A stretch of 64,000 nucleotides of DNA from a bacterium (GCA_021781215.1 JAJXXC010000002.1:16274-80273); one strand, 5' to 3'. Numbered from the stretch's first letter, positions 283 through 42,407 are shown. Numbers and translations: made by a program. Notes: generated by a model from the letters alone, not told the origin.

Positions 283-419
283 CTATGGAATCATCATACC
301 ATAGTACAGCTCGATACTCAGATATTCCAGCATATAGCCAAATTTTCTTCTTCAAACCTCTCCTTAGAGGAAAACAGAAGGGAGTCTTACACTCCACTAA
401 AGCAGCTTAATTCTCTACC
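1..419 (-). mobile_element. Intron (probably group I) interrupting 23S rRNA at or next to E. coli position U1931-G1933. Partial: continues past the window start.
   Basis: The conserved 23S helix-69/70 sequence CCGTAACTATAACGGTCCTAAGGTAG (reverse complement of 420-445) is followed by AGAATTAAGCTGC... rather than the expected CGAAATTCCTTGTCGGG. The insert carries the homing endonuclease ORF. The upstream exon ends in GGT(AG), consistent with a terminal exon U for group I P1 pairing. Confidence 0.6.
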
Positions 420-2440
<2,021 letters not shown>

Positions 2441-4839: not shown

Positions 4840-7356
4840 CTAAATATCTTCAGAATCTTCACTGTCTTCAGGAGTAGTTGGCGCTATCGACATTGATGAT
4901 ACTTTATCGTTTTCATTAAGTCTCATAATTCTCACCCCCTGAGTGGCTCGGCTCATTTCCGGAATATCCTTCAGGCCCAGTCTAATGGTTTGGCCTGAAT
5001 TTGATATTAAAATTACTTCATGTTCTTCATCCTCAAGCGTAGCCACACCTATCAATTTACCAGTCTTAGAGTTAACAACAGCAGATCTAATTCCCACTCC
5101 CCCTCTGGCATGAGAAGTAAATTGTGCAACTTTAGTTCGTTTGCCATATCCTTGCTCACTTATAACGAATATATGTGAGTCTTCTTTAACTATATCCATT
5201 CCTATTACTTCGTCGCCAGCTCTGAGTCTAATGCCCCTTACGCCCCTAGATACTCTACCCATTGGTCTTGCATCTTTTTCGTGGAATCTGATAGCCTGTC
5301 CATTAGCCGTTGAAATTAAGATTTCGTTTTTGCCATTAGTCATACATACCCACCTTAATTCATCACCATCATCAAGATTAATCGCATTAATTCCAGATGC
5401 TCTAACATTTTGATACTGGCTAAACGGTGTCTTCTTCACAACACCCCTAACTGTACACATAATTAAGTTACCTTCGCTCTCAGGTGTTTTGCTAATATTT
5501 ACAACATAGCTTACTTTTTCTTCTGGCTGAAGCTGAAGCAGATTAACTAGTGCAATTCCCTTAGAGTTGAGATTGGTAGCAGGTATTTCATAAGTCTTAA
5601 GTCTAAATACCCTGCCCTTGTTGGTAAAGAACAGTAAGAAATCGTGAGTACTAGCATTCAGGAGCTTATCAACTGCATCCTCGTCTCTAGTAACCATACC
5701 CCTACGGCCCTTTCCACCTCGCCCCTGCTTCTTGTAGTCGGCGATTGGGCTCCGCTTTATGTAGTTGGCAACCGTTAGCGTAATTACTACTTGCTCATCT
5801 GGTACTAGATCTTCATCACTCATTTTACCTAGCTCATTTGGAATAATAAGCGTTCTTCTTTCATCGCCATACTTCTCTTTTAGCTCAAGCATTTCGTCGC
5901 GAATAATAGCCAAAATCTTTTTCTCATCTGCCAAAATTGACTCTAGCTGGCCAATTATTTTCAATAACTCATTCAACTCATCTTCTATTTTTTGTCTTTC
6001 TAGTCCCGCTAGACGGCGTAGTTGCATCTCCAATATAGCCTTAGCCTGAATTTCACTTAGTTTGAACTTAGATACTAAATTAACTTGCGCTTCTTCTGTA
6101 GTGTCACTAGATCTAATAACGGCGATGACCTCATCTATGTGATCAAGCGCAATCTTAAGACCTTCCAGTATATGAGCACGTTCCTTGGCTTTTCTTAGTT
6201 CATATTCAGTTCTTCTTCGAACAACTGACTGTCTGTGCTTAATGTGTTCTACGAGTATGTCTTGTAGTCCCAAAACTCTTGGTTGAATGCCGTCTATTAG
6301 CGCTAACATATTATAGTGGAATGTTCCCTGCAGTGGTGTTAGTTTAAATAATTGATTCAACAGTTTCTTAGGATAAGCGTCCTTCTTTAGATCAATTACA
6401 ATTTTTACATCACCCCTAGAACTCTCATCTCTAATATCACTAAGTCCAACAATTTTTTTATCTTTATATAGCTCATACATTTTTTCTAGTAGACTAGCTT
6501 TATTCAAACCATAAGGGATCTCGGTTATAATAATTTGACTTTTACCCCTGTCGTTTTCAACAATCTCTGCTACTCCCCTAACGACTACGCCTCCACGGCC
6601 AGTTGCATAGGCAGTTCGTAGTGAATCCTTGCCATAAACAACTCCTCCGGTTGGAAAATCTGGTCCCTTTAGGTGCACTAATAAATCGTCGAGCGTTGCT
6701 TCAGGATTATCTATCTGATGCACTGTCGCATCTACTAGCTCACTCAAGTTGTGCGGAGGCATGTTTGTTGCCATGCCAACAGCAATACCAAGCTGACCAT
6801 TTAATAGCAGGTTGGGCAACTTGGCTGGTAATACTGACGGCTCCTTGCGTTCACCATCATAAGTATCTATCCAATCCACGGTCTCCTTGTCAATATCAAC
6901 CAAAAGCTCTTCTGCAGCCTTCATCATTTTAGCTTCGGTGTATCGTTCGGCTGCTGGAGGATCTCCATCCATGGAACCAAAATTACCTTGACCATCAACA
7001 AGCATATATCGCATTGACCACGGCTGAGCCAATCTAACCATTGCATCGTATATAGCAACGTTACCATGAGGGTGGTATCTAGCCATTACCGTACCGGTCA
7101 CATTGGCGCTTTTTCTATATTTACCAGTTGGCCTAAGACCTTCTTCATGCATTGTATATAATATTCGTCTATGCACCGGTTTAAGACCGTCTCTGACGTC
7201 AGGCAAGGCACGTGCGACAATAACACTCATAGAGTAGGTTAAATAGCTGGACTCCATAATATCCTCTACACTACGAGGCTCTACGAGCCTTGAATGAGAT
7301 TGTTCTGGAGCTATAATCTCTACATCGTCTTGGTTTGGTTTGGCATCTTCTTCCAT
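4840..7356 (-). CDS. gyrA: DNA gyrase subunit A
   Basis: 838 aa. [26 protein letters not shown], the active-site Tyr region and C-terminal beta-pinwheel repeats. Acidic C-terminal tail. Confidence 0.97.
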   Translation of the reverse strand: [838 protein letters not shown]

Positions 7357-7357
7357 A

Positions 7358-9349
<1,992 letters not shown>

Positions 9350-9440
9350 TTAATTCTTACATCTATTATACATGATTTAACTACCTCTTCCAACCCTAAC
9401 TGAATAGATAGATAATACGCCTACAGCTGTTTACCAATAG

Positions 9441-12194
9441 CTATAAATCCTGTTTTATTACAGGACTATTATTGGCGCCGTCACCGTCTTCAACGACTGG
9501 TAAATTAGCACTAGTTGAAGAATTATTTCTTTGAATCTTAAATTCCTGCTCTTGTCGTGGCTGAACATTATCGTTTAAATTGCTGACGACACTGGATGTG
9601 CTCATGAAATTAGTATTGGTCGCAGGCGGCGTAAATTGTTTTCTTTTGGCCAACCATTCATCAAGAAAAGATGGAGTTGCTTTAGGCCTAGGAGACCCTA
9701 GCCCCTGGTCCTGCGTTGGCAACCCATTAAAAGGGTTGGGTGGTATTGGTGCTCCCAAAGTAGCCAACCGCTCTTCTATTTGTTGAGCAACTAAAGCCTT
9801 AGGACGACCATATTTTGTAGCCGATAATTGTTTTAATGCAACTATGAGTTCCTGGTTGGGGTCCTCTAACGGTGGAGGTACGCCCTCCATACTAAAAGCA
9901 TCGGTTGGCACACCATTGATTAATGTCCTGACAATACAATTATGGTTAGCAACCCTTAGTAAATCATCTTCATCGAATAGCGGTTGAAAATACTTTGCTA
10001 GTATCTGAACATCATTTTGGCCTACTCTAAATGATACAATCGTACCCATATTGCCGAATACTGCATCTCTAATTTCTTCTGACAGCTGTGTCGTAAATTG
10101 ATTAGCTACTATTAGGTTAAGCGCATATTTTCGAGCTTCTGACATTATCGTAGAGAAAGAATCAGTAGAAAAATTCTGAAACTCATCTACATACAAACAA
10201 AAATCCCTTCGATCCTTTTCCAGTATATCTGCTCTACTGAGTGCTGCCTCTTGAAACTTCATAACAAATATCATTCCGAGCAGCTGAGAGTTTAGTTCCC
10301 CGATTCTCCCTTTGCTAAGATTAACTATTAGTATTTTTCCTTCGTCCATTATTTTTCGCAAGTTAAATGAGCTTTTAGGTTGACCTATTATATTTCTCAT
10401 CATTTCGTTTTGCTGAAATGCGCCGAATTTACTTACAAACCAGCTCTTAAGTTCTCCAAAATCACTGGATCGTTCTGATTGGGGCACTTCCTTCTGCCAA
10501 AAATCTAAAACAGTTCTGTCTGTAACGTGTTTTAATTTTTGAGCCAAGAAATTCTTATCAATAAATAATTTTGGTATATCTATGAAAGTGCCTCCTTCCG
10601 GGTCAGCCATTACTGTCAGAGCTGCATTTCTAAACAAGTGTTGATATCTTGGACCAATAATGCCTTGATTGTGCGGATCATATAATTTCTCCAACATCTT
10701 AATGGCCTCTTGAATCAAAAAGTCTTTTCGGTCAGGGCTTTGAAATTCAAAAATATTAAGTCCTAGCGGAAACTCTGTCTCTGCTGGAGAAAAATAGATC
10801 ACATCTTCCGTTCTATGTTTAGGTACCATGGACAGTATTTCTTCCGCAACATCTCCGTGAGGATCTATAAATGCAAAACCTCGACCTGCATTCATATCTT
10901 GAAGCGCGAGATTTTTTAAAAATACGGATTTTCCGGTACCGGTCTGACCAACTACATAAATATGCCGTTGTCTATCAGGGAGACTGAGCATGACTGGTTT
11001 TTTTACACCTCTAAAAATATTATAACCAAGCAATAGGCCCGTTTCAGGCATATTCCTGGGTGCGTCTACTTGCTTAGAAGACTGTCTCTCAAGCTGTGCA
11101 GTAGGCGTATTTTCTCTATCGGGAAAGTGAAAAATAGTAGCTAGCTCCACTGAATTTAATATACTTTTATTATTCTCGGGTGGGAAAAATCTTAATATGT
11201 AGGCAGTAGTAAAGCTCTCCATGTCTCTAGACGGCGTATATTTAAAGCCATTCTTGCCGGGTGAGTCAAAAACCGCAAAACTAGCAACTAAATGGTTCAA
11301 AATAGCCTGAGATTTATCTAGCTTATCTGACGACGCCACTACTCTTATTAAAGACTCAAACCCTGGGTATTTAACCTTCTCTTCTATAGCATCGCTTATA
11401 GCCTGGTCGAGATTAGACGACTTGCTTTCGGATTTATCGCTTTTTTTATCAACTTCTGGATTAACCAGAATCTTATTTGCTATGGCTAGCGTTACGCCTA
11501 GTGCTGTCTTTTTCTTTTCACCACCCTTCCTTTTTGAGTTAGCATAATCAGACGCTGTTTTTCTCCAAGAAGTATTTGCTGGCCTAAGCAAGAACTGGAT
11601 TCCAGCCCCATCTTCCTTATCTAAGGAAGAAAATGAGTTTAAAATCGTTTGCATTGGGTCTCTTTTCAGCTCCTGATAAGTTGCTATTGGATATGCAAAT
11701 TGATTTTTTAATATTAGCTCGCCGCCCACAGTTGAACCTAACTTGCCGATTGGACTAAATAAATTATTATCCGGTACTTCTTCTAGCATAGAACTCGGGT
11801 AAGCACTTATGATTGCCTGTTTGACTATATCAACTAAGTCTATTGGGACTGATGCATAAAAATTAACAAAGCCCTTGGAGCCAATTATCTCAAAAGAGAA
11901 ATGTCTTTGCCCATAGATCCTTGACTTAAAATCAGTCTTTATAGTACTGGCAAGAATACTGTAAATGGTTTGTGCCTTTGAAATATTCTCGTCATCTACG
12001 TCCCTTATGTCTCTACCGTTAGATATGATGTCGTCACTAGATGGTGGTAGATTTATTAATAGAGTAACCATCTTTAAACCACGCTCATAGCTTTTTTGTT
12101 CACGAAGAATACGTCTAACTTGATAAAATATCACTGGTAGCAAAACAAAAACCACTAGGAGTACAAAGAACAGGTCTATGAATAAGGTCTGCAT
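9441..12194 (-). CDS. Membrane-anchored VirB4/VirD4-class (FtsK-HerA clade, AAA_10/TraG-like) P-loop ATPase
   Basis: 917 aa. N-terminal TM helix (FIDLFFVLLVVFVLLPVIFY) and a ~380-aa N-terminal domain. Walker A VVGQTGTGKS at ~aa 415, followed by FAFIDPHGD. Walker B CLYVDEFQNF. A conjugative-ATPase-like C-motif ANQFTTQL...VSFRVGQND. Low-complexity Pro-rich C-terminal tail. The Walker A position (~aa 415) favours a VirB4/TraC-type architecture over a T4CP. Confidence 0.6.
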   Translation of the reverse strand: MQTLFIDLFFVLLVVFVLLPVIFYQVRRILREQKSYERGLKMVTLLINLPPSSDDIISNGRDIRDVDDENISKAQTIYSILASTIKTDFKSRIYGQRHFSFEIIGSKGFVNFYASVPIDLVDIVKQAIISAYPSSMLEEVPDNNLFSPIGKLGSTVGGELILKNQFAYPIATYQELKRDPMQTILNSFSSLDKEDGAGIQFLLRPANTSWRKTASDYANSKRKGGEKKKTALGVTLAIANKILVNPEVDKKSDKSESKSSNLDQAISDAIEEKVKYPGFESLIRVVASSDKLDKSQAILNHLVASFAVFDSPGKNGFKYTPSRDMESFTTAYILRFFPPENNKSILNSVELATIFHFPDRENTPTAQLERQSSKQVDAPRNMPETGLLLGYNIFRGVKKPVMLSLPDRQRHIYVVGQTGTGKSVFLKNLALQDMNAGRGFAFIDPHGDVAEEILSMVPKHRTEDVIYFSPAETEFPLGLNIFEFQSPDRKDFLIQEAIKMLEKLYDPHNQGIIGPRYQHLFRNAALTVMADPEGGTFIDIPKLFIDKNFLAQKLKHVTDRTVLDFWQKEVPQSERSSDFGELKSWFVSKFGAFQQNEMMRNIIGQPKSSFNLRKIMDEGKILIVNLSKGRIGELNSQLLGMIFVMKFQEAALSRADILEKDRRDFCLYVDEFQNFSTDSFSTIMSEARKYALNLIVANQFTTQLSEEIRDAVFGNMGTIVSFRVGQNDVQILAKYFQPLFDEDDLLRVANHNCIVRTLINGVPTDAFSMEGVPPPLEDPNQELIVALKQLSATKYGRPKALVAQQIEERLATLGAPIPPNPFNGLPTQDQGLGSPRPKATPSFLDEWLAKRKQFTPPATNTNFMSTSSVVSNLNDNVQPRQEQEFKIQRNNSSTSANLPVVEDGDGANNSPVIKQDL

Positions 12195-12195
12195 A

Positions 12196-12633
12196 TCAGT
12201 GTTCGCTTATTAATTTATTAAAACGAGGGTTCATCTTGTATTGATTTTTGGCTTTTGCTAAGCTATCACTTTTCATATACGGATCACCTTGCGTATTATT
12301 TACGATTGCTCTAGCTCTATCAACCCAAATCCTCTCAAAATCTTTATCACTAAGCCTCGCCTCATCGTCTACATTAATTTTTTTACTAGCCTCTGCACTC
12401 CCCACATTATTGGCCAATGAATCATCTACGACCGGTGGTAAAACCGAGTCATCTGTAGATACTTGCTGAATAGAATTGAGGCTGGAAAAAATATTAGATG
12501 ATGACTGCTCCGCGGAGTGCTTAATTTTATCCGTATGGTCTTGTGGTGTCTCAGCCTGTTGCGGAAGTATTTCTTCAGGATGGCCCGATTGAATTTCAGG
12601 TGCCAGGCCTTCATTCTTTTTATATTGTTCCAT
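12196..12633 (-). CDS. Hypothetical acidic/disordered protein, translationally coupled to the downstream ATPase
   Basis: 145 aa, no TM segment, Ser/Asp/Glu-rich. Its stop codon is 1 nt from the ATPase start codon. Confidence 0.5.
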   Translation of the reverse strand: MEQYKKNEGLAPEIQSGHPEEILPQQAETPQDHTDKIKHSAEQSSSNIFSSLNSIQQVSTDDSVLPPVVDDSLANNVGSAEASKKINVDDEARLSDKDFERIWVDRARAIVNNTQGDPYMKSDSLAKAKNQYKMNPRFNKLISEH

Positions 12634-12705
12634 AATACGAATAATTATATTACATTTCTAACAATCGACCATTATGAAAAAATAATGTCATGAATATGAT
12701 AAGGT

Positions 12706-13083
12706 TTATTTCTTTTTTATAAAATCCACCCTAGAAAAATATATAGCTATTAATAGAAACAGCACGAGAGCCAAAGATACGTCTTTAAAAGTGAACTCGC
12801 CGATGGAAGCCATAACAAGTAACAAGACTGGTATGATCGAGTATCCGGCCGCAATAAACGCACTACTACCCATAGAATATGTTCTATTTGTAAAAATAGA
12901 TTTTTTTATTATCCAATAAAATATTAAAAAAAATATTAAAAAAACAGATATTATTGGCAATAGTAAGATTAGAACAGGTAAGTTCTTCGGATTGGTAAAA
13001 AGAATAAAATAGAATAAGGAGAGCAATGACAATAGGAAGGATACGAAGTATATAAGAGTGGGTTTATTTTTATTGATGCTCAT
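12706..13083 (-). CDS. Small polytopic membrane protein (3-4 TM helices), first gene of the ATPase operon
   Basis: 125 aa, almost entirely hydrophobic helices (FVSFLLSLLSLFYFILF, VLILLLPIISVFLIFFLIFYWII, IIPVLLLVMASIG, LALVLFLLIAIYF). It sits in the position VirB2/VirB3-like genes take upstream of VirB4. Confidence 0.5.
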   Translation of the reverse strand: MSINKNKPTLIYFVSFLLSLLSLFYFILFTNPKNLPVLILLLPIISVFLIFFLIFYWIIKKSIFTNRTYSMGSSAFIAAGYSIIPVLLLVMASIGEFTFKDVSLALVLFLLIAIYFSRVDFIKKK

Positions 13084-13782
13084 AACTCAAAATAATTGTT
13101 ACATACTAAAACAAAAAAACATACCTACTGGAGGTATGTCAGAAATGGTGTCTGGGCGATAAATCCGCTCTATATTAAAAATAAAATAGCGCTTATCACC
13201 CGAGACTTTGACTGGCTGCTCTCGTAAAACGAGAGCATATCGACACTATACATTTGTGCCATAGAAGTAAGTTTTTTGTCTTCAACTCACTATATAACAT
13301 TAGCATTATACTTTTTGCTTGTCAACTCATTATCGTTGCGATTCATACAATACTATACCTTAAAAAAGTTTATAGTAAGAGTACTACTTACTGTATTTTA
13401 ATGTTGTTATTATATCAATGATATTTATGAACACTAATATTTTAAAATGAACATTTTATGTACACCTATTATAAATTATATTATTTTCGTACACGCGGGA
13501 TAAGCCTTAGTCGTAATTATGTTTTTGATCAACCAAATACTATGAAATATCAATAAATTGATCTAAAGTATCCACACGGTGCATTTACCTATGTAATTTA
13601 ATACACCTACTGGTCAACAATAGTGTGTGAAAACTAATTTTTTTAGTGTCATGCCCAGACCTATTATTATTTGATTTATTATTTACGCAAAAAATCGTCT
13701 TACCATTTAGACTATGCTTGGGCTTTCTAACCGGATAATTTTAAAAAGAGGGTTTATGCACAGTTTTTTTAACATAATCGCG

Positions 13783-13812
13783 TTGACAAGCATATTTTTA
13801 ATACGCTAATAT
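13783..13812 (+). promoter_or_regulatory. Near-consensus sigma70 promoter (TTGACA-18-TAATAT), probably driving infC-rpmI-rplT
   Basis: cgTTGACAagcatatttttaatacgcTAATATagc. Followed by a ~270-nt structured leader with hairpins at ~13862-13889 (aacaacggctt/aagccgttgtt) and ~13931-13960 (ataataaccca/tgggttattat). Confidence 0.4.
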
Positions 13813-14087
13813 AGCTTTAGCACTTGAATAAATAAAGTGCTCAAAAACAAAAATGACCTCGTAACAACGGCTTATAAAAAAGCCGTTGTTCCTTAACAAA
13901 AAACTAAACGACAAATAAAAAAACAACAAAATAATAACCCACATAATGTGGGTTATTATAATTTATAACCCCCAGAACACTTAAGACTAGGAAAGTATTT
14001 TATATTGATTAAATTTTATACTTGAATATTAGCTGCATTATCTGTTATATTAATTCGAATAAAGATGGTTATTAAAGGAGAATATTC

Positions 14088-14615
14088 ATAGACAAGAACG
14101 TCCGCCTGAATGGAGCAATTCGGGCAACTACTCTACGCGTTATAGACGAAAACGGAGAACAGCTCGGGGTTCTATCCCGAAAAGAGGCTCTAGATTTAGC
14201 AGAACAACGCGAATTAGATTTAGTTGAAATTTCACCCAACGCGAATCCTCCTGTCGCTAAGATAGTTGACTGGGGTAAATTTAACTACCAAAGGATTAAG
14301 CAACAACAGAAGAACAGAAAAAATACTAAGATACTGGATCTTAAACAGATAAGGTTTGGTTTGAAAATTAGTGACCACGATCTTGGCGTTAAGCTAAGAA
14401 AAGCTAGTTCTTTTTTAGAGGCTGGTCATAAAGTTAAATTTACGATATTCTATAGAGGACGAGAATTAGCTCATAAGGAAATGGGCTTCAAGCTAGCAGA
14501 GAAAGTAATCATCTATTACGCAGATAAAGTGATAATAGACCAGCCTCCCCAGCTAGCAGGTAAACAATTAAATTTTGTAGCAAGGAGTAATAATGCCAAA
14601 ACTAAAGACGCATAG
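14088..14615 (+). CDS. infC: Translation initiation factor IF-3, probable non-AUG (AUA) start
   Basis: In-frame translation from 14088 gives IDKNVRLNGAIRATTLRVIDENGEQLGVLSRKEALDLAEQRELDLVEISPNANPPVAKIVDWGKFNYQ... continuous with ORF-track 14361..14615. An upstream in-frame stop lies at 14073-14075. SD AAAGGAG at 14074-14080. There is no in-frame ATG/GTG/TTG, so start is inferred at ATA 14088; the exact start codon is uncertain. Non-AUG infC starts are the classic IF-3 autoregulatory feature. Confidence 0.75.
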   Translation: MDKNVRLNGAIRATTLRVIDENGEQLGVLSRKEALDLAEQRELDLVEISPNANPPVAKIVDWGKFNYQRIKQQQKNRKNTKILDLKQIRFGLKISDHDLGVKLRKASSFLEAGHKVKFTIFYRGRELAHKEMGFKLAEKVIIYYADKVIIDQPPQLAGKQLNFVARSNNAKTKDA

Positions 14616-33728: not shown

Positions 33729-34391
33729 TTAATTTTGTGTATACGCCTGGGTGCTAAAACTATAAATTGCACAAAACGGTCCAATTAAAACCGTTGGCCT
33801 GCATATCCATTGACTGCCATTATTATTTTGCACTAGATTAGACTGATTCCCGTATAAGATTTCTATATTTACAGAATAAAGCCCACTGGAAACATTAGAT
33901 AACATGCTCTGATTATCATATACTGTATGATTTAGAATTTCCACATTATTGGGCGATAGCAAGGATTGAGTATCGGCACTAAGTCCAGAATTGTTAATAA
34001 ATTGCTGTGGTGAAAAACAATTTTGGCTGCCCAATACTCCCTGCAGAGATACAATCGGTATTTTATATATATTCCCTCCCGGAATATAGAAATATTCATT
34101 CTGAGTTGTGCAAAAATAATAATAAATAGTTGCCTGAGATCCGGTCTTTGTTACTTGAGCAGACTGATCAGTAGTTATTGAAGCAGTTGTGCTAAATTCA
34201 ATATCTCTTGTCATAGTATCCGAAAGGCTAACCGCAATATTCTGAGTTTGACCTCTAATAAAACCATTCGTATAGGTTTTAGATATCTGGATCACTCCAT
34301 AGGTAACAATAAATAGTACAGCCGTAAATACTGATGTAGCTATCAATAGTTCTATTATCGTAAAACCATTTTGATCAAGCTTCTTAATCAT
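33729..34391 (-). CDS. Type IV minor pilin/pseudopilin (class III signal peptide)
   Basis: N-terminus MIKKLDQNG|FTIIELLIATSVFTAVLFIV: G at -1, F at +1, E at +5. Confidence 0.65.
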   Translation of the reverse strand: MIKKLDQNGFTIIELLIATSVFTAVLFIVTYGVIQISKTYTNGFIRGQTQNIAVSLSDTMTRDIEFSTTASITTDQSAQVTKTGSQATIYYYFCTTQNEYFYIPGGNIYKIPIVSLQGVLGSQNCFSPQQFINNSGLSADTQSLLSPNNVEILNHTVYDNQSMLSNVSSGLYSVNIEILYGNQSNLVQNNNGSQWICRPTVLIGPFCAIYSFSTQAYTQN

Positions 34392-34858
34392 ATTGAAGCC
34401 TGATATGAAATACTTAAATTATCGCAATTAAATAGACTTTGACTATTGCAGGCGTGATTAACTGGATTAATACTCAAATTGCGCCAGTAAACGTTAATGG
34501 TAAATGTATAGTCGTAGGTTGTGGGCGGATTAGGAGGTGTGGGGGCTTGAAATTCATACATAAAAGCACCTTTTGTTTGTAGGCTAGAAGTAGCCTGATA
34601 ATTATTGCTACTATTTAAATAGAAATTTCCACCGGATGGATTAATAGAGGTGGGGTTGGAGGCTAATAGCTGTTTTAGAGATTCAATTTGACCAGAAGCA
34701 ATATTTAAAGCCGTTACTCTATTTTCTGAGTTTATAATATTATCTAATGAATATTGAGCCGATTGGTATGCGCCTGTTAAAACAAACGCCAAAATCACCA
34801 TTGCAATCAATACTTCGACAATAGTATCACCATTTTTATTTAATTTAAGTATTCTCAT
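34388..34858 (-). CDS. Type IV pilin-like protein with an atypical processing site
   Basis: MRILKLNKNG|DTIVEVLIAMVILAFVL: E at +5 is conserved but +1 is Asp rather than Phe/Met. 4-nt overlap with the downstream pilin gene. Confidence 0.5.
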   Translation of the reverse strand: MRILKLNKNGDTIVEVLIAMVILAFVLTGAYQSAQYSLDNIINSENRVTALNIASGQIESLKQLLASNPTSINPSGGNFYLNSSNNYQATSSLQTKGAFMYEFQAPTPPNPPTTYDYTFTINVYWRNLSINPVNHACNSQSLFNCDNLSISYQASI

Positions 34859-34869
34859 AGATTAATCCT

Positions 34870-35712
34870 CTAACAACCAGTATAACTATAATTTAATAAT
34901 AGGTTTGTTGCATCAGACTTTCCCTCAAAAGAAATCTGAACAAATTCTCTAGGCTCAAGTGGAGAGCTCAGGCAAACTACAACTGAGCCCACGGGATTGA
35001 TATTGTAGCCACCTACTACTCCGTTAACTACGCTGTCTGCATTTATATAGTTTATGGCATTAGAAGAAGCAGAGGCTTCAGTGGGTATGATAAAAAGATT
35101 GTTTCCGAGAGAACTATTGTCGGTTAAATTTGAGGTTTGAATATTATAAAAACCTACAATATCATTTACGATACCTACAGGATTTCCTGAATAGGTGACT
35201 TTAGAGACAGTAAATTGATCAGGTAATCCTACTACTTTAACTCCTTGGGGAGGAAAACTGCCCGATATCCCAGATCCAACACTAGCGAATACTTTCGCAG
35301 ACCGTGGAAAGGGTGGTGGTGGGTTAAGTGATGTTCCGCCAAATTGATTACCAACCAAACTATAAACATAATAAAAAGACGACCTTGTAGCTAATGGGTT
35401 AAATTGGATGGCTTTACCCACATAAACACAGCCCAAATTCGTGCCTTGGCTTTGAGCGACTGGTGAAAAATATGGTGAGCCCGAAACATCCTTACATGAC
35501 ACGGGACTATTAGTTGTGTAGAGACCATTTTGAACATCAGTGCTAAGCGACTGTAGCTCAGTATATATTTGTCTGGCGCCTGTATCAAATTCGGTTTGTT
35601 TCTGGTCACCGTTCATTGCCATAGCGGCAGCAACAAATAAAAATGAGGCTAGCCCAAGTACAATTAACACTTCTATTATAGTAAAACCGCGTGGTAAATG
35701 ACCACTATTCAT
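34870..35712 (-). CDS. Type IV pilin-like protein (minor pilin)
   Basis: MNSGHLPRG|FTIIEVLIVLGLASFLFVAAAMA. Confidence 0.65.
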   Translation of the reverse strand: MNSGHLPRGFTIIEVLIVLGLASFLFVAAAMAMNGDQKQTEFDTGARQIYTELQSLSTDVQNGLYTTNSPVSCKDVSGSPYFSPVAQSQGTNLGCVYVGKAIQFNPLATRSSFYYVYSLVGNQFGGTSLNPPPPFPRSAKVFASVGSGISGSFPPQGVKVVGLPDQFTVSKVTYSGNPVGIVNDIVGFYNIQTSNLTDNSSLGNNLFIIPTEASASSNAINYINADSVVNGVVGGYNINPVGSVVVCLSSPLEPREFVQISFEGKSDATNLLLNYSYTGC

Positions 35713-35758
35713 GAACTAAATTATAGCATAAGCGTAGTGCTATTACCTGATAAAGAGC

Positions 35759-36574
35759 CTAGCCAATTAATCCGGTATACCAATTCAAGATTTGTGACCC
35801 AAAGAAAAAACACAAGAACGTACTAAAAATTAATAACGGCCCAAAGGCTATGGTCATATTAGCTTTTAATTTCTTCGTTATTAACAAAAACCCCGACATT
35901 AAGCTGCCTGCTAATGAGGCCAAAAAAAGCATTAAAACAACTTCTAGCGGACCGCCCAATATAATGCCGAGTGCGATACATAGCTTAACGTCTCCCCCGC
36001 CTATCCATTTACCATTTGAAACCTGAAAAATTAAATAAAATATACCTGCCGAAAATAGCACTCCATATAATCGAGCCAATAGATAAGCTGAGGTTTGATC
36101 ATATTTAATATAGTAGATAGTAGCAAAGACTAGGGATAGAAAGATGGCACTATAAACTAAATTATTTGGCAGAATCTTATATTTAAAATCGTAGATTGCT
36201 AAACCTACTAGTATTACTAAAATTACCAACCAAAGCATCAACAATATATAGTCCCATAAGTTAAAGCTATATGGCCAGTAAAAGTATGATAGAGAGAATA
36301 GCACTCCGGTGATTAACTCAACTATAGGATATTGAAGACTTATGGCTTTGTGACAATATCTGCACTTGCCTCTTAATAATAACCAGCTAAAGATTGGGAA
36401 TAAGTCGACCGGCGACAATATATGCTTACATTTTGGGCACATTGACCTTCCCTTAAAAAATGAGTGTTTTTTGCTGACTTTTTTTGAAGAACTATATTTT
36501 AAGTGTAGCCTCCATACAAAAGAATTAATGAAACTGCCAAATATAAGACCGAGTACCAGAAAGATTATTGTCAT
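35759..36574 (-). CDS. pilD: Prepilin peptidase (A24 family)
   Basis: N-terminal TM, the cytoplasmic tetracysteine CPKCKHIL...CRYCHKAIS, and multiple TM helices with the conserved Asp-bearing GGGDVKL. Confidence 0.8.
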   Translation of the reverse strand: MTIIFLVLGLIFGSFINSFVWRLHLKYSSSKKVSKKHSFFKGRSMCPKCKHILSPVDLFPIFSWLLLRGKCRYCHKAISLQYPIVELITGVLFSLSYFYWPYSFNLWDYILLMLWLVILVILVGLAIYDFKYKILPNNLVYSAIFLSLVFATIYYIKYDQTSAYLLARLYGVLFSAGIFYLIFQVSNGKWIGGGDVKLCIALGIILGGPLEVVLMLFLASLAGSLMSGFLLITKKLKANMTIAFGPLLIFSTFLCFFFGSQILNWYTGLIG

Positions 36575-36643
36575 AATTTTTACTACTTACAATAGTAACA
36601 TCTTATATAGATAGAAAATAAGCCTGATATTGTTTACTGGTTT

Positions 36644-37255
36644 CTACTGAGCCTGCAAACAGTTCCAGTCAGGGGCACCAGATGTCTGTGAAGTATACAA
36701 TATAGCAATATTAGACTGGCTGCCTGCTGTAAGAACGAGTGATGGACCGCTTAGGGTTGCTGTGTTGGATGCGTTTTGGCAAGTGACTCCCGGATCAATA
36801 ACTACTACCCAAGGAAATGGTGAATAACTAGTAATGGCGCTGGCGAGCAATAAGGTGCCTGCTCCCGATACGCTTTCACTGCCCAAATACCATCCAGATG
36901 AAATAGTAGACGATGTTGATGCTGCGCCATTTAAATTAGCACTGTTAAAAGCAGTGGGTGGTGGTGGTTGCGTACCCGGTTCAACTAATTTAGAAAGTGC
37001 TCCGACGTTATTATATATATCTGAAAGCTGTGTATTCGAAGTTGGTACTATTCCATTATTATTTGAGGACCAAGTGCTAACAGCCGCTGCAATATGAGAA
37101 GCATCTGTCTTGGCGGCAGTGTTGGCTTGTGACCTTTGAAGGCCTGGAACAGCTAGCAATACTACAGCCATAATTAATCCGGCAATAGCCAGTACAATCA
37201 ATACCTCTATGATGGTAAAACCACTATTGTCATTACTTTTTAATATTTTATTCAT
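36644..37255 (-). CDS. pilA: Type IV major pilin (PilA-like)
   Basis: MNKILKSNDNSG|FTIIEVLIVLAIAGLIMAVVLLAVPGL: a canonical class III signal peptide and alpha1 helix. 203 aa, located between pilC and pilD. Confidence 0.75.
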   Translation of the reverse strand: MNKILKSNDNSGFTIIEVLIVLAIAGLIMAVVLLAVPGLQRSQANTAAKTDASHIAAAVSTWSSNNNGIVPTSNTQLSDIYNNVGALSKLVEPGTQPPPPTAFNSANLNGAASTSSTISSGWYLGSESVSGAGTLLLASAITSYSPFPWVVVIDPGVTCQNASNTATLSGPSLVLTAGSQSNIAILYTSQTSGAPDWNCLQAQ

Positions 37256-37349
37256 TGTTTTGGTGCCCCTATTATATATGATTAAAATTATATCGCTTAT
37301 GGCTATTGTATGCTAGTTAGAAATAGATAACAATACGAATATTCTTACC

Positions 37350-38576
37350 TTAAGTTCCTCCAGTAAAACTACTATTGCCCGCAAGGCTATAAATCGGAAG
37401 CAGTACTGCTGCAACAATGATAAAAGCAAAAACTCCTAAAACAATCATCAGAACTGGTTCAATTAATGTCGATATATTTTTGACCTCATCATCTACTTCT
37501 TTTTCGTAATAGATGGCCAGTCTCTCTAGCATTTGATCAATGGTTCCAGAGGCTTCACCAATTTTTAACATACTTGGCACCAATGGCAAAAAATTCTTAT
37601 TGTTTTCAATAGTTTCAGACAATGACTTGCCGAGTTTAACTTTTTTTATAGATTCAACGATTGTGCCCTCTATGTGGACATTGTTAATTGCCTTAGATGT
37701 AATTTCCAGAACCTGAATTAAGGGTAAGCCGCTACTAACTAATGTTGCTGCTGTTCTAGAAAATCTTGCCATATATAGTTTCATAAACAAAGGACCGATT
37801 GGCCAAATATTCATCTTCAAATTATCGAGGGTTTCCGTACCTACTTTAGTTTTTCTCCATGAATTTATAAATACAATGATCACAACTAAAACTAGAATGA
37901 TTAACCACCAAAAACCAATTATAAAATGAGATACGCTAAGCAAAACTCTAGTTAAGATAGGTAAACTACTGCCACTTGCAAGCCCATTGTATAAAGTCCC
38001 TACTGCAGGCAAAACTTTAACCACCATAAATGACATAACACCAAGCATGACAATTAATACGATAATTGGATAAGTAAACGCGCTTCTAATTTTTTTATTT
38101 ACATCAGCATCTTTCTCTAATTGATCAGCTAATCTTTCCAAAGATTTATCAAGCGACCCAGAGATTTCACCCGCGGCTATCAAATTTAAATATATAACTC
38201 CAAATACCTTTGGGTATGCTGATAGCGCCTGAGAAAGCGATTTACCAGATTTAATTGCATCAATTACCGACCGAATAATATCTTTTAGGTTTTTAGCTTG
38301 TGTCTGGTCCGCAGTATTAACTAGTGCCTGCATCAAGGGCAAACCGGCATTAATTAAAGTAGATAATTGTCGAGTAAAAAGTATAGTGTCTTTTTGTTTA
38401 ACTTTTGAGCTCGTAAAAGAAAAAGCTGAAAATGGATTCTTTAATTTAACGTCTATTGGATTTAGCCCCTGTTTTCTAATGGTTTCGGTAGCCTCTTTAA
38501 TGCTCCCGGCTATAAGATCTGAGCTTACTCTTTTACCAGTAGCAGCTTTTATTGCTGAGAATTTATATATAGGCAT
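37350..38576 (-). CDS. pilC: Type IV pilus platform protein PilC (GspF family)
   Basis: 408 aa, two T2SSF repeats, three TM segments. Confidence 0.85.
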   Translation of the reverse strand: MPIYKFSAIKAATGKRVSSDLIAGSIKEATETIRKQGLNPIDVKLKNPFSAFSFTSSKVKQKDTILFTRQLSTLINAGLPLMQALVNTADQTQAKNLKDIIRSVIDAIKSGKSLSQALSAYPKVFGVIYLNLIAAGEISGSLDKSLERLADQLEKDADVNKKIRSAFTYPIIVLIVMLGVMSFMVVKVLPAVGTLYNGLASGSSLPILTRVLLSVSHFIIGFWWLIILVLVVIIVFINSWRKTKVGTETLDNLKMNIWPIGPLFMKLYMARFSRTAATLVSSGLPLIQVLEITSKAINNVHIEGTIVESIKKVKLGKSLSETIENNKNFLPLVPSMLKIGEASGTIDQMLERLAIYYEKEVDDEVKNISTLIEPVLMIVLGVFAFIIVAAVLLPIYSLAGNSSFTGGT

Positions 38577-39646
38577 TATTCTCTCACCATTCTCTCTAAT
38601 TCATCAGCATCAACCGCAAAGCTCATGGCGTTATCAAAGGTTATAGTCCCTTTTTGGACTAGATTTGCTAAGGTTCTATCCATGGCCTGCATACCAAATT
38701 GAGCACCTGTTTGAATTACTGCCTCTAACTGATGGCTTTTGCCTTCTCTGATTATATTTCTTACAGCCGCATTGGCAATTAAAATTTCAGCGGCGGCAAT
38801 TCTTCCACCCCCAGTGGTCGGAATCAACCTTTGGGAACAAATTGCCATTAAAATACTCGATAGCTGTGTACGAATTTGATTTTGTTGGTGTGGAGGAAAT
38901 ACGTCAATCATTCTATCAATACTTTGTGATGCTGAATTGGTATGAAGTGTTGCAAACACTAAATGACCAGTCTCGGCGATAGTAATTGCGGCGGCAATTG
39001 TTTCAAGATCCCTCATTTCACCAATTAAGACTACGTCGGGGTCTTCTCGCAAAACAGACCTTAGTGCTACCCCAAAAGAAAAGGTGTCATAATGCACTTC
39101 TCTCTGAGCTACTACGGATCTAATTGACTTATGCATGTATTCAATTGGGTCTTCAATAGTAATAATATGAGCAGCTTTTTCACTATTAATTTTGTGAATT
39201 ATAGATGCCAAAGTAGTTGATTTACCCGAGCCAGTTGGACCCGTAATTAATACTAAGCCCCGCGGATAATTTCCAAACTCGTTAACAATCGCCGGTAATC
39301 CTAGCTCCTCAACAGTAAAAATCTTGGTTGGGATAAGCCTTAGGGCCATCGCCAAGTTGCCACTTTCATGAAATGAGTTAACTCTGAATCGAGCCTGATC
39401 ACCAAAAGCAAAACTGAAATCAAACTCCTTATCTTTTAGAAGAATTTGTTTCTGATCATCGTCCAATATTGAAAATATCAGTAGTTCGACATCAGCCTCA
39501 GTTAATGGTTTATACCCAGCAACCGGAGCCAATACTCCGTCAACACGAATCATTGGTGGCGTTGCCACTTGAATATGAAGATCTGACGCATTGCGTTTAA
39601 TAACTTCACTGAGTAGATTTTCGATTTTTAATTCTTGGTTCATCAT
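38576..39646 (-). CDS. pilT: Twitching-motility retraction ATPase PilT
   Basis: 356 aa. Walker A GPTGSGKSTT, Asp box, His box, and the PilT-signature AVRNIIREGK (AIRNLIRE). Confidence 0.85.
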   Translation of the reverse strand: MMNQELKIENLLSEVIKRNASDLHIQVATPPMIRVDGVLAPVAGYKPLTEADVELLIFSILDDDQKQILLKDKEFDFSFAFGDQARFRVNSFHESGNLAMALRLIPTKIFTVEELGLPAIVNEFGNYPRGLVLITGPTGSGKSTTLASIIHKINSEKAAHIITIEDPIEYMHKSIRSVVAQREVHYDTFSFGVALRSVLREDPDVVLIGEMRDLETIAAAITIAETGHLVFATLHTNSASQSIDRMIDVFPPHQQNQIRTQLSSILMAICSQRLIPTTGGGRIAAAEILIANAAVRNIIREGKSHQLEAVIQTGAQFGMQAMDRTLANLVQKGTITFDNAMSFAVDADELERMVRE

Positions 39647-39658
39647 ATTATCTATAAT

Positions 39659-41446
39659 TTATGCGTTGTCTGTAGCTGCGACTCTATCAACTTCCTGTAG
39701 AGTTGTCTGTCCAGCTAAGGCTCTTAAATAACCGTCCTGCCTTAATTCAATCATCCCCTGTGATATGGCAACTTTTTGGATTTCTTCACTGGTTACACGT
39801 TTCATTATTAGATTTTGAATTTCCTGTGTTACCTCAAATACTTCGAACAAACCCAATCTTCCGCGATATCCGTTCGGATAACCAGGGCTTTCGATTCCCT
39901 TATATAAAGTATAAGCATTTTGGTTAGCTAATGGCAAATTATCATAGCCTAAATCAGCCGAGACTCTAGCTACATCAGCGGGGGTTTTGGGTAGTAAATT
40001 CCCTACTGTCTTGTGAATAGCATCAGTCTCGATACTGCTGGATTGGTAAGCCGTTTTGTCATTACTAATTCTTCTAATTAATCTCTGTCCAATTACCGTT
40101 CTAACCGTACTGGCAATTAAGAATGGCTCAACTTCCATATCTAGTAATCGGGGCAATATTCCAGCCGCCGAGTTAGTATGGAGCGTAGATAGCACTAAAT
40201 GCCCGGTTAAGGACGCCTGCACAGCTAAGGCTGCGGTTTCACCATCTCGTATCTCACCAACCATTACCACGTTTGGGTCTTGTCTTAATATTGATCTAAG
40301 CCCGGTTGAAAATGTTAGACCTATATCAGGATTGACCTGTATCTGATTAATCCCGTCCATTTTATACTCAACCGGATCCTCCAAGGTCACAATATTTATC
40401 GAATCACTCTTAATTTCTTGAATTAAGGCGTATAGAGTGGTCGATTTACCCGATCCAGTGGGACCACTGGTTAAGATCATGCCGCTAGATTGTTTCAAAG
40501 ATAATTGGATAGCTCTAAGCGATCTACCGGTAAAGCCCATTTGATCGAGCTTAAGATTAATTCCGGTTTTATCGAGTAGCCTAATTACAACCTGCTCCCC
40601 CCACACAACTGGCGCTATGGCAATTCTAAGGTCGATTTCCTTATCTGGTAATTTAAAGGTAAATTGTCCGTCTTGAGGTATTCTATGCTCATCAATTTTT
40701 AAGTTAGACAGAATCTTAATCCTAGAGATTAGAGCGGCTTCAGTATTTTTTGGTAATATCATCAATTCACGCAAAATACCGTCAATTCGACATCTAATTT
40801 TCAAATTATACTCTAAGGGCTCAACATGAATATCACTGGCCCCATTATCTGCAGCATAGGTCAAAATAGTAGTCAGAGTTTTTGAGATTGGAGAATCTTG
40901 ATCGTTGGTAATTGAGATTTTTTTGCTACTTATTAGAGAGTCACCGGCATCAGATTCCTTGTTTTGTTCTTGATCTATATTTTTACCTATATTTTTATCT
41001 ATGAACGTTTGGTATTGTTTCAAGACTCTTTTTATACCGGTTTCACTAGCTGAATAGACTTTAAGCGGAACCCTAATCTTATTAGATAAAAAATCTACTA
41101 CCTGAACATTATCAGCATCCAACATTGCTACGACTAGATACCCCTGGCTCTTACCAAGAGGTACGGCCATGTATTTTTCAGCAGTTTCTTTAGGTAGCAT
41201 AGCTAAAAATTCAGGATCAACGTAGGCATTACTCAAATCTACATAGGGTAGTTTATTTATCTTGGCCAAAATTTTAGTTACGGCCTCTTCGGATATTTTT
41301 TGTTTATTTATTAAGTACGCCAGTATTGGGGTTTTAGCTTTTTCGGCTTCAAGTTTTAAGCTACTGAATTCGGTTGCAGAAAAATATCCATCTTGGATAA
41401 ACGTTTCTTCTAGTCGACTTTGGTTAACTGGTGAGAGTAGGCTCAT
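39659..41446 (-). CDS. pilB: Type IV pilus extension ATPase PilB (GspE family)
   Basis: 595 aa. N-terminal GSPII_E_N domain and C-terminal ATPase (SGPTGSGKSTTLYA, VGEIRD, HT...STLHTNSA). Confidence 0.85.
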   Translation of the reverse strand: MSLLSPVNQSRLEETFIQDGYFSATEFSSLKLEAEKAKTPILAYLINKQKISEEAVTKILAKINKLPYVDLSNAYVDPEFLAMLPKETAEKYMAVPLGKSQGYLVVAMLDADNVQVVDFLSNKIRVPLKVYSASETGIKRVLKQYQTFIDKNIGKNIDQEQNKESDAGDSLISSKKISITNDQDSPISKTLTTILTYAADNGASDIHVEPLEYNLKIRCRIDGILRELMILPKNTEAALISRIKILSNLKIDEHRIPQDGQFTFKLPDKEIDLRIAIAPVVWGEQVVIRLLDKTGINLKLDQMGFTGRSLRAIQLSLKQSSGMILTSGPTGSGKSTTLYALIQEIKSDSINIVTLEDPVEYKMDGINQIQVNPDIGLTFSTGLRSILRQDPNVVMVGEIRDGETAALAVQASLTGHLVLSTLHTNSAAGILPRLLDMEVEPFLIASTVRTVIGQRLIRRISNDKTAYQSSSIETDAIHKTVGNLLPKTPADVARVSADLGYDNLPLANQNAYTLYKGIESPGYPNGYRGRLGLFEVFEVTQEIQNLIMKRVTSEEIQKVAISQGMIELRQDGYLRALAGQTTLQEVDRVAATDNA

Positions 41447-41466
41447 ATTACTAAAATCTTTGCTTA

Positions 41467-41709
41467 TTAATGAGTGAATGGAGAATTGTTTGCGTTATTA
41501 CCAATTTTAACTAGTAGAGTTGGGTCAATAGAATTTGAGTTTAAATATTGATTACCTGGTAACTTAAAAGTGGTATTAATCGTGTTAACGACCGTAACTT
41601 CTTGCTGAGTAGAAATAAAATGCGACAGAAGTGCCGAGGTAACAATTATAGCCAAAACTGCACTCAAAAACATTGTGCTAATAATTAACGCTAAGTCATT
41701 TTTTTTCAT
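41467..41709 (-). CDS. Small single-pass membrane protein in the PilP position
   Basis: 80 aa, one TM (LALIISTMFLSAVLAIIVTSALL) plus a short extracytoplasmic tail. 4-nt overlap with upstream pilO-like gene. Confidence 0.35.
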   Translation of the reverse strand: MKKNDLALIISTMFLSAVLAIIVTSALLSHFISTQQEVTVVNTINTTFKLPGNQYLNSNSIDPTLLVKIGNNANNSPFTH

Positions 41710-42407
41710 TGTACAACCTCCGTGCTGGTATAGATTCCCGATGAAGGATTGTAATAGTAGGTTTGGGCTGTAATCGAAGCAGTTAAATCAGCGTCGGTAC
41801 CTGTCAATTGAATGGTCAATATATCAATTGGTGAAACCGACCTATTAATAACGGCTAAGAAATTCTGAATATTAGTATAGCTCCCTTGTACTGAAAACGA
41901 TATTGGAATAGGCACGGGCTGAGCAGACTGGACTAAAGATAGTGAATTATCGGTACCGGTCAAACTTTCGACAGTGATGCCCGGCATAGTAAACAATGCC
42001 TGCAGACTAGATATTATTGCCGGGAAGTCGTATGACTGAGGCAGTGCATCTAGAATAATTTTAGCGTTATTCCCAGAAGTTGAGCCATTACCGGTACTTG
42101 AACCACCAATTATATTGACAGGCTGATTAATAAAATTAGTGTAGGCACTTTGTACATTATTGGCAACCTGCTGATCCTGGACAATATTATTAATTGAAGT
42201 CCTTTGAGCCGATAATACTCGGCCTTGATAAATATAAAAACCAAGCAAAGTTTTGCTAGTAAAAAGTCCAAATATTAATAAAAATGAAGCAATTGCCAGA
42301 GAGGTCACAGCATTAGCTTTGGCTTTATCGATTTTAATCTTAGTATTTAGTTTAGCTTTCATCTTTTTACCCGTTTGACGTATTAAATAATGCCGCTGGT
42401 TGATCAA
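41706..42407 (-). CDS. pilO: PilO-like pilus alignment protein (bitopic); the true start is probably the internal Met at ~42362
   Basis: Basic cytoplasmic N-terminus, one TM (AVTSLAIASFLLIFGLFTS), then an extracytoplasmic domain. Sits between pilN and pilB. Confidence 0.5.
   Translation of the reverse strand: MINQRHYLIRQTGKKMKAKLNTKIKIDKAKANAVTSLAIASFLLIFGLFTSKTLLGFYIYQGRVLSAQRTSINNIVQDQQVANNVQSAYTNFINQPVNIIGGSSTGNGSTSGNNAKIILDALPQSYDFPAIISSLQALFTMPGITVESLTGTDNSLSLVQSAQPVPIPISFSVQGSYTNIQNFLAVINRSVSPIDILTIQLTGTDADLTASITAQTYYYNPSSGIYTSTEVVQ

Follow-up and report, generated by a model that had tools for sequence, protein, structure and literature searches.

Type IV secretion systems (T4SSs) are among the small number of machines that are known as essential to the epibiotic lifestyle of bacteria in the Candidate Phyla Radiation (CPR). 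Published work describes CPR systems either without a recognisable coupling protein or with a coupling-protein homolog that is dispensable. In Ca. Southlakia epibionticum ML1 an essential T4SS is encoded at SEML1_0006-0019, described as being without recognisable coupling and relaxase proteins (PMC10633639), and the same genome contains a block composed of yifB, SEML1_0140 (354 bp), 0141 (420 bp), 0142 (3,060 bp), 0143, 0144, gyrB and gyrA (Wang et al. 2023, PMC10633639). Across the CPR, 5,713 VirD4-like genes are reported in 2,918 of 3,035 genomes, only 148 of the 5,713 lying near virB4, and the type IV coupling protein (T4CP) is suggested to have been perhaps exapted, an argument made from 'the' non-essential ML1 homolog, a gene that is not named there (Quinonero-Coronel et al.). 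Here we describe an operon with the same gene order and sizes as SEML1_0140-0142, likewise followed by gyrB and gyrA, in a 64,000-nt stretch of DNA (GCA_021781215.1 JAJXXC010000002.1:16274-80273; hereafter the window) from an ultra-small Saccharibacteria (CPR) bacterium. Its largest gene encodes an ATPase that, as judged from its sequence, very probably belongs to the T4CP/VirD4 lineage of monoderm conjugation and not to VirB4.

The operon consists of three genes on the minus strand, listed here from open reading frame (ORF) calls with product lengths in amino acid residues (aa):

12706-13083, minus strand, gene 1, 125-aa membrane protein
12196-12633, minus strand, gene 2, 145-aa acidic protein
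9441-12194, minus strand, gene 3, 917-aa ATPase

A first-pass annotation of the window had described three minus-strand ORFs of exactly these lengths, ending 118 nt before gyrB, with a polytopic first product, an acidic second one and a single N-terminal helix in the ATPase; the ORFs are as it described them, and hydropathy and isoelectric point (pI) calculations bear out the three protein descriptions. The first two genes are separated by 72 nt, and the second and third by a single base, with the stop codon of the acidic gene at 12196-12198 and the ATG of the ATPase at 12194. The 118-nt gap follows the ATPase stop codon, and gyrB (7358-9322) and gyrA (4840-7356) lie beyond it, also on the minus strand.

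The ATPase can be divided into the following parts, all on the minus strand:

12075-12194, minus strand, membrane helix and positively charged stretch, aa 1-40 (hydropathy; AlphaFold2 helix at aa 2-40)
11040-12074, minus strand, DUF8128, predicted VirB4-N-terminal-domain-like alpha/beta fold, aa 41-385
9750-11039, minus strand, P-loop motor, aa 386-815
10926-10949, minus strand, Walker A GQTGTGKS, aa 416-423
10170-10196, minus strand, Walker B LYVDEF, aa 667-672
9444-9749, minus strand, disordered C-terminal tail, aa 816-917, with predicted local distance difference test (pLDDT) values below 50 save for a short helix at aa 843-852
9639-9668, minus strand, FLDEWLAKRK motif, aa 843-852

Several points emerge from this architecture. 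First, there is a single N-terminal membrane helix (about aa 2-31 by hydropathy), and a membrane helix lies within the first 80 aa in all 60 aligned homologs; the positive-inside rule predicts that the N-terminus is outside and the remainder of the protein cytoplasmic. Secondly, the motor motifs quoted in the first-pass annotation are all present and their key residues are invariant in the 60-sequence alignment, which reaches down to 37% identity: G416, G419, G421, K422, D670, E671, Q699, and the DPHG at aa 444-447. Thirdly, the AlphaFold2 model of the full protein (mean pLDDT 82.7) begins with a long helix at the N-terminus, continues as an alpha/beta domain modelled with confidence (aa 42-355) and then a P-loop domain (aa 385-815), and ends in the disordered tail; an all-helical insertion (about aa 485-620) between Walker A and Walker B is modelled as eight helices at aa ~488-618. 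Of 33 Saccharibacteria orthologs, 29 have the FLDEWLAKRK motif of the tail, whereas all 45 orthologs taken from other CPR groups lack it.

The N-terminal ~345 aa correspond to PF26449 (DUF8128) in the precomputed Pfam annotation of an identical protein and of all close homologs, and we found no mention of DUF8128 in the literature searched. As modelled, DUF8128 is a VirB4-N-terminal-domain (NTD)-like fold: among the hits listed, the N-domain fold search gave no match to the VirB4 entry that contains only the C-domain or to any other RecA-like ATPase, so the match is to the VirB4 N-terminal domain. Since a domain previously regarded as being of unknown function is structurally a VirB4 NTD, the VirB4-like placement of Walker A is real, and to this extent the proposed mimicry of a VirB3-VirB4 arrangement stands; the other half of the comparison does not, there being no VirB3 signature in the small gene, and the operon is not a VirB3-VirB4 pair. 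The structure comparison figures were 29.1 for the VirB4 C-terminal domain (4ag5), 28.4 for the C-domain of DptH, 26.8 for TrwB, 24.7 for HerA, 24.2 for DotL, 21.4 for Cagbeta and 17.4 for FtsK. A search with the N-domain profile alone recovered no named non-CPR families; it gave only fragments, nearly all of them CPR-named, and the few other labels belong to partial proteins on short contigs.

At the sequence level the best curated profiles for the 917-aa protein are SXT_TraD (1e-10) and a VirD4-like model of the CD1115 family (1e-6), followed by TraG-D_C (4e-4) and VirB4_CagE (2e-3), an order that favours coupling proteins although each profile falls short of its cut-off, and the only meaningful sequence matches in the PDB are TrwB and DotL. 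Members from other CPR groups have precomputed matches to TrwB_AAD_bind (PF10412) and T4SS-DNA_transf (PF02534) beside DUF8128. Full-length relatives that include the N-domain were found by tblastn in 596 plasmid records (Bacillus, Streptomyces, Staphylococcus, Clostridium, Sulfolobus and haloarchaea) and in 50 phages, which are SPO1-like. Two of the plasmid relatives are especially informative. An 812-aa protein of Embleya sp. plasmid NZ_CP108778.1, annotated as a 'type IV secretory system conjugative DNA transfer family protein', is 27% identical to the CPR ATPase over aa 89-773 (BLASTP, E 2e-66), also has an N-terminal membrane helix, and is encoded in a cluster with PrgI and NlpC/P60, flanked on one side by a VirB4-like gene and on the other by a replication-relaxation relaxase. 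A 913-aa protein ('DUF87') of B. subtilis plasmid NZ_OX419568.1 is encoded directly upstream of a relaxase and of a conjugation cluster with TcpE and AAA_10; we considered that this plasmid might be pLS20 and dropped the idea because the T4CP gene order of pLS20 differs. The CPR family profile scores 300.7 bits against the Embleya ATPase (profile positions 77-776) and 241.5 bits against the Bacillus ATPase (in two segments, 92-231 and 272-858), whereas with the VirB4s that these two plasmids encode it reaches 18 bits or gives no score. These matches, together with the plasmid and phage contexts, place the ATPase in a monoderm coupling-protein lineage that carries a VirB4-like N-domain. The VirB4/VirD4 class that the first-pass annotation gave to the motor is upheld, and the protein is neither an FtsK paralog nor a HerA-NurA helicase, the outcomes that the annotation had named as refuting: it has neither the 4TM-alpha-beta-gamma domain set of FtsK/SpoIIIE nor the N-terminal barrel of HerA, and no nuclease partner gene accompanies it. 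Replacement of FtsK was also ruled out, as a complete canonical FtsK (4TM, alpha, beta and gamma) is encoded elsewhere in the window, at 53729-55945.

The comparison with described systems shows both likenesses and departures. The plasmid ATPases and the CPR ATPase are alike in the Walker A/B and TraG-D_C region, but whereas the plasmid genes sit inside conjugation clusters, directly upstream of replication-relaxation relaxases, the CPR gene lies on the chromosome with no T4SS or relaxase gene linked to it, accompanied by small partners and an RNA leader of its own. T4CPs of the TrwB type have two membrane helices followed directly by the motor, whereas the CPR ATPase has one helix and then the VirB4-NTD-like domain. 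In most systems VirB4 itself lacks an intrinsic membrane helix, and its gene lies beside that for VirB3, whereas no VirB3/PrgI signature was found in the gene neighbouring the CPR ATPase. The SPO1-like Bacillus phage proteins (SPO1 gp27.4, our locus L089; PHROG 5156, E 7e-91) are similar over the full length of the protein (aa 41-851, 22-24% identity), and in SPO1 the genes next to gp27.4 encode a nicking replication initiator and a partition protein, while a T4SS is absent.

The ATPase family is CPR-wide, as judged from full-length relatives of 35-43% identity in Woese-, Levy-, Curtiss-, Berkel-, Staskawicz-, Uhr-, Portnoy- and Peregrinibacteria and in Paceibacterota; the Saccharibacteria orthologs are about 65% identical, and an identical ATPase is present on public contigs. 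Homologs number over 6,400 when clustered at 90% identity, and at 50% identity there are 21,303 representatives, 5,431 of them with E<=1e-30; these thousands of clusters, together with the conservation of the small genes, show that this is not a chance ORF. The gene neighbourhoods were surveyed by calling ORFs in 85 related loci and searching them with jackhmmer. In Saccharibacteria the order membrane protein, acidic protein, ATPase is seen wherever the upstream flank is present (about 35 loci), so that loss of conservation of the small ORFs in related genomes, which the first-pass annotation named as a possible refutation, is not observed. In one Saccharibacteria clade (L034, L037 and L042) pheS, pheT and an unidentified ORF of about 480 aa lie between the membrane-protein and acidic genes. 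We also note that some genomes of other CPR classes (L045, L047, L072 and L079) have two ATPase paralogs, arranged in tandem or a few kbp apart.

The two small partners are Saccharibacteria-specific. The 125-aa protein has about four membrane helices and a pI of 9.9 (hydropathy and charge calculations), shares 33% identity with the gene at the same position in L004, and belongs to a family that jackhmmer recovered in 36 loci, the window among them, where it precedes the acidic gene and the ATPase; no consistent Pfam family was found across 32 members. The 145-aa protein has no membrane helix and an overall pI of 5.05, made up of an N-terminal part with a pI of 4.4 and a last 50 aa with a pI of 9.5. 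Its N-terminal ~95 aa are acidic, variable and rich in proline, alanine and serine across the family, and are probably disordered, whereas the basic C-terminal module (12199-12348) is conserved with the consensus DLIEKEWVxKAKxIVxxTxxDPY...ADYLKKRY. The acidic gene lies directly upstream of the ATPase in 37 loci including the window, with no Pfam family in any of 32 members. The motif xEWVxKAK of this module loosely resembles DEWLAKRK in the ATPase tail, which we regard as a lead only. Profiles for VirB3, PrgI, VirB2 and TrbC matched neither small protein nor any of 32 homologs of each, and that for TrbD matched neither the 125-aa protein nor its 32 family members. On these results we rejected a VirB3/PrgI identity for the 125-aa protein, whose four or so helices also differ from the one or two of a VirB3/PrgI-type partner, and a VirB2/TrbC identity for the 145-aa protein; the comparison of both proteins with VirB2, VirB3 and TrbC that the first-pass annotation put forward thus drew a blank in every family member. 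At 29 loci of other CPR classes the ATPase is immediately preceded by an ORF of 90-300 aa on the same strand, with a low-complexity N-terminal part and a helical C-terminal end in the examples inspected. Homology of these ORFs to the Saccharibacteria acidic protein was rejected, as hhalign gave nothing significant, and position alone is therefore common to the two.

What is the role of this operon? Transposon insertion sequencing (Tn-seq) of S. epibionticum gives three calls per gene (ES, essential; GD, growth defect; NE, non-essential), and those for SEML1_0142, annotated as a 'TraM recognition domain-containing protein' with its P-loop assigned to an FtsK-motor-like class (PMC10633639, Table S1/S2), are ES/ES/ES, with 114 insertions in the input falling to 11 after selection. 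SEML1_0141 is GD/ES/ES, with insertions falling from 9 to 0, and SEML1_0140 is NE/GD/GD; a separate T4CP-like gene, SEML1_0293 (TrwB_AAD_bind), is NE/NE/NE (PMC10633639, Table S1). In view of these calls the published 'non-essential t4cp' is probably this different paralog, SEML1_0293. SEML1_0141 and SEML1_0142 are not mentioned in the main text of PMC10633639, their essentiality being given in a supplementary table only, and the essential paralog appears to have been overlooked in published accounts. The operon is thus partly present in databases and in a supplementary table, so far uninterpreted.

Since Tn-seq finds the syntenic counterpart essential in the single CPR species examined in this way, the ATPase may well be the motor that the CPR T4SS has seemed to lack; its role in secretion is inferred. 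We put at about even the chance that this is a chromosomally fixed T4CP-lineage ATPase which, with two small partners, serves the CPR T4SS as its coupling protein. A more specific proposal, which we advance tentatively and think somewhat less likely to be right than wrong, is that the operon is the missing essential coupling and energising module of the Patescibacterial T4SS, distinguished by a VirB4-like docking domain, the lack of a relaxase, lineage-specific adaptors and control by an RNA leader. As a coupling protein in general, the ATPase would form a membrane-bound hexamer with its bulk in the cytoplasm, and would recruit substrate and supply energy, as other T4CPs do, at the cytoplasmic face of the unlinked MPF-FATA-type T4SS that is encoded elsewhere in Patescibacteria. 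By analogy with the contact between the VirB4 NTD and VirB3 in R388, the VirB4-like N-domain may dock small membrane subunits, and in Saccharibacteria the 125-aa four-helix protein is a candidate for anchoring it in the manner of VirB3. Adaptor or regulator contacts could be provided by the FLDEWLAKRK motif of the tail and by the conserved basic module at the C-terminus of the acidic protein, analogous to those of TraD-TraM, DotL-IcmSW and Cagbeta-CagZ. Because no relaxase is linked, the substrate would more likely be a protein, or DNA handled without a relaxase.

Several observations weigh against a coupling role. First, the curated T4CP cut-offs are missed (TraG-D_C, 20.7 bits with a cut-off of 22; TrwB_AAD_bind, 12.9 with 20.5; SXT_TraD, 40.8 with 366). 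Secondly, a VirB4-like N-domain is not a described T4CP feature, and the ATPase could therefore act in assembly and not in coupling. Thirdly, T4SS or relaxase genes are found neither among the scanned ORFs of the window nor among the recurrent neighbours in about 80 CPR loci, where the neighbours are instead genes of DNA metabolism and division (gyrBA, dnaX, an XerC/D-like recombinase and DivIC). Moreover, the phage homologs work without any T4SS; the ATPase is taken as an ortholog of SEML1_0142 on the basis of synteny, gene sizes and annotation, not of sequence comparison; and essentiality in an obligate epibiont cannot separate a role in general viability from one in host interaction.

The alternative closest to the first-pass annotation is a stand-alone minimal translocon, in which the ATPase hexamer and the four-helix protein form a channel independent of any VirB4 T4SS, with the acidic protein as substrate, plug or regulator. 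The tight and conserved operon does include a membrane protein, the ATPase is anchored in the membrane by itself and its VirB4-like N-domain could bind a small membrane subunit, the phage homologs offer a precedent for action without a T4SS, and more CPR assemblies have T4CP-like genes (2,918) than have VirB4 (2,417). However, a 125-aa protein of four helices is small for a pore, and its family is detectable only in Saccharibacteria whereas the ATPase is CPR-wide; the syntenic membrane gene shows only a growth defect where the ATPase is essential; pheST separates the membrane gene from the other two in three loci; and all characterised contexts of the family outside the CPR are conjugative T4SS clusters. 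The absence of other T4SS parts, on which this idea drew, does hold for the window ORFs scanned, which include a type IV pilus cluster, but the idea is weakened by the finding that a related Saccharibacterium has a full essential T4SS elsewhere in its genome (SEML1_0006-0019), reported without a recognisable coupling protein. We consider a stand-alone channel unlikely, and the operon is probably not a self-sufficient device.

Somewhat less likely still is that the ATPase is a DNA motor for chromosome biology (replication, segregation, dimer resolution or DNA uptake), a former conjugative T4CP no longer engaged in secretion. The conserved gyrB-gyrA synteny in Saccharibacteria, the dnaX, XerC/D-like recombinase and DivIC neighbours in other CPR groups, the constant position of the plasmid and phage homologs beside a nickase or relaxase, and the essentiality of the gene are all in keeping with such a function. 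Nevertheless, the window already provides a complete canonical FtsK, the ATPase has no DNA-binding gamma-like domain and no linked nickase in the CPR, and ComEC-dependent transformation is dispensable in S. epibionticum. The neighbourhoods also differ between CPR classes, so that DNA-related genes may be neighbours simply because core housekeeping genes lie close by.

We think it improbable that the protein is a divergent second VirB4, acting as an assembly or pilus-biogenesis ATPase and not as a coupling protein. The VirB4-like fold of DUF8128 is the feature that suggests it, but VirB4 proteins (TrwK of R388 and T. pseudethanolicus VirB4) are clearly separate from the CPR family in sequence profiles, and the VirB4 profiles are not reached (TIGR00929, 16.2 bits with a cut-off of 643; AAA_10, 13.6 with 27.5; CagE_TrbE_VirB, no match). 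Within the VirB4/VirD4 class named in the first-pass annotation, the sequence thus places the protein on the T4CP/VirD4 side. Finally, an integrated mobile element remnant or a defence ATPase (HerA, DptH, MADS-like) is highly improbable, as the gene is essential, single-copy and syntenic across the whole phylum at about 65% identity, has no nuclease, Sir2, methylase or integrase partners, shows no patchy distribution with flanking repeats or integrases, and has PADLOC matches that cover only the generic P-loop region in a context that does not fit.

The region of about 1 kbp upstream of the operon contains two conserved non-coding blocks. The proximal one is the structured RNA leader (13127-13246), listed here with the features to either side of it:

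13297-13325, minus strand, putative operon promoter (-35 TTGACA at 13325-13320, a 17-nt spacer with TG, TAATGT at 13302-13297)
13127-13246, minus strand, structured RNA leader (alignment, RNAalifold, covariance model)
13108-13140, minus strand, terminator-like hairpin and T-run (a 9-pair stem followed by TTTTTGTTTT), between the RNA leader and the first start codon

The putative promoter was read from the sequence and is not listed by the consensus scan; its TTGAC box and downstream TA-rich box align in many Saccharibacteria loci. The leader consists of a variable hairpin, P1 (GCTCTC..GAGAGC), a near-invariant box (GAGCGGTCAGTC, with GAGCAGCCAGTC in the window) and a long stem, P2 (GGGTGATAAGCGCT / AGAGCGGATTTATCGCCC). 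RNAalifold predicts 12 pairs, seven with compensatory changes, in an alignment of 16 loci (alignment A4). In the covariation test 97.9% of cells are paired, compared to 33-46% when the partners are slid, and there are 28 double-change cells as opposed to 8.4 in shuffles, with none of 500 shuffles reaching the observed value. The operon strand is also the one that suits a conserved G-U pair. With the covariance model, 17 Saccharibacteria loci (one of them outside the seed alignment) have a single strong hit each, always just upstream of the membrane-protein gene, and four more have weak hits upstream of that gene; the weak hits in L034 and L042 lie a few hundred nt upstream of it. There are no hits in other CPR groups, and the leader matches no Rfam family at E<=5. 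The hairpin at 13108-13140 is a possible attenuator, and in related loci its position is taken by another hairpin, likewise with a T-run. Overall, the leader looks like an undescribed cis-regulatory element.

The distal block (13760-13925) is 75-94% identical in nucleotide sequence between genomes whose proteins are about 65% identical. A reading of it as a non-coding RNA gene was given up in favour of a divergent promoter with a leader that serves the infC-rpmI-rplT operon: it contains a plus-strand promoter (TTGACA-18-TAATAT, 13783-13812) and two conserved hairpins, faces infC-rpmI-rplT in the window and yifB-infC in other genomes, and may be an r-protein-type leader. The infC ORF of the window (14361-14615, plus strand) encodes 84 aa with the C-terminal domain of IF3 only, and is probably short because the true start is a non-canonical codon further upstream, as is ordinary for infC.

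At the other end of the operon, one further feature lies in the 118-nt gap:

9365-9393, minus strand, promoter-like site before gyrB (TTGGAA-17-TATAAT; consensus match only)

This site suggests that gyrB has its own promoter. In most Saccharibacteria, S. epibionticum included, two convergent genes (DUF5353-like and DUF11/CLIPPER) that are absent from the window lie between the ATPase and gyrB, and from these and the promoter-like site we conclude that the proximity to gyrBA is conserved synteny and not a conserved transcript; the read-through into gyrB proposed in the first-pass annotation is therefore not a conserved feature. Beyond gyrA, 16S, tRNA-Ile, tRNA-Ala and 23S genes follow on the same strand. 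The 23S match (329-2436, minus strand) spans model positions 1-2925 within only 2,108 nt at a modest 1573 bits, so that compared with a standard bacterial 23S the gene seems to be short by about 800 nt; the remaining 328 nt gave no 5S rRNA match. Elsewhere in the window there is a complete type IV pilus cluster (33729-44078, minus strand) encoding PilM, PilN, PilO, PilB, PilT, PilC, a pilin, a prepilin peptidase and three more pilins with N-methyl motifs. Directly upstream of it are a 1,000-aa ORF with no Pfam match (44140-47142, minus strand) and, adjoining this, a 573-aa NHL-repeat protein (47203-48924, minus strand).

Taken as a whole, the evidence points to a second, CPR-wide coupling-protein paralog, whose syntenic S. 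epibionticum counterpart is essential together with its small acidic partner. The presence of a VirB4-like N-domain in a protein of the T4CP lineage bears on the divergence of the two T4SS ATPase families, and the covarying leader RNA adds a new candidate to the regulatory elements of a phylum for which almost none are known. If the ATPase does serve the T4SS, then the ATPase, its tail motif and the acidic protein would offer a direct route to the substrates that these bacteria move to or from their hosts.

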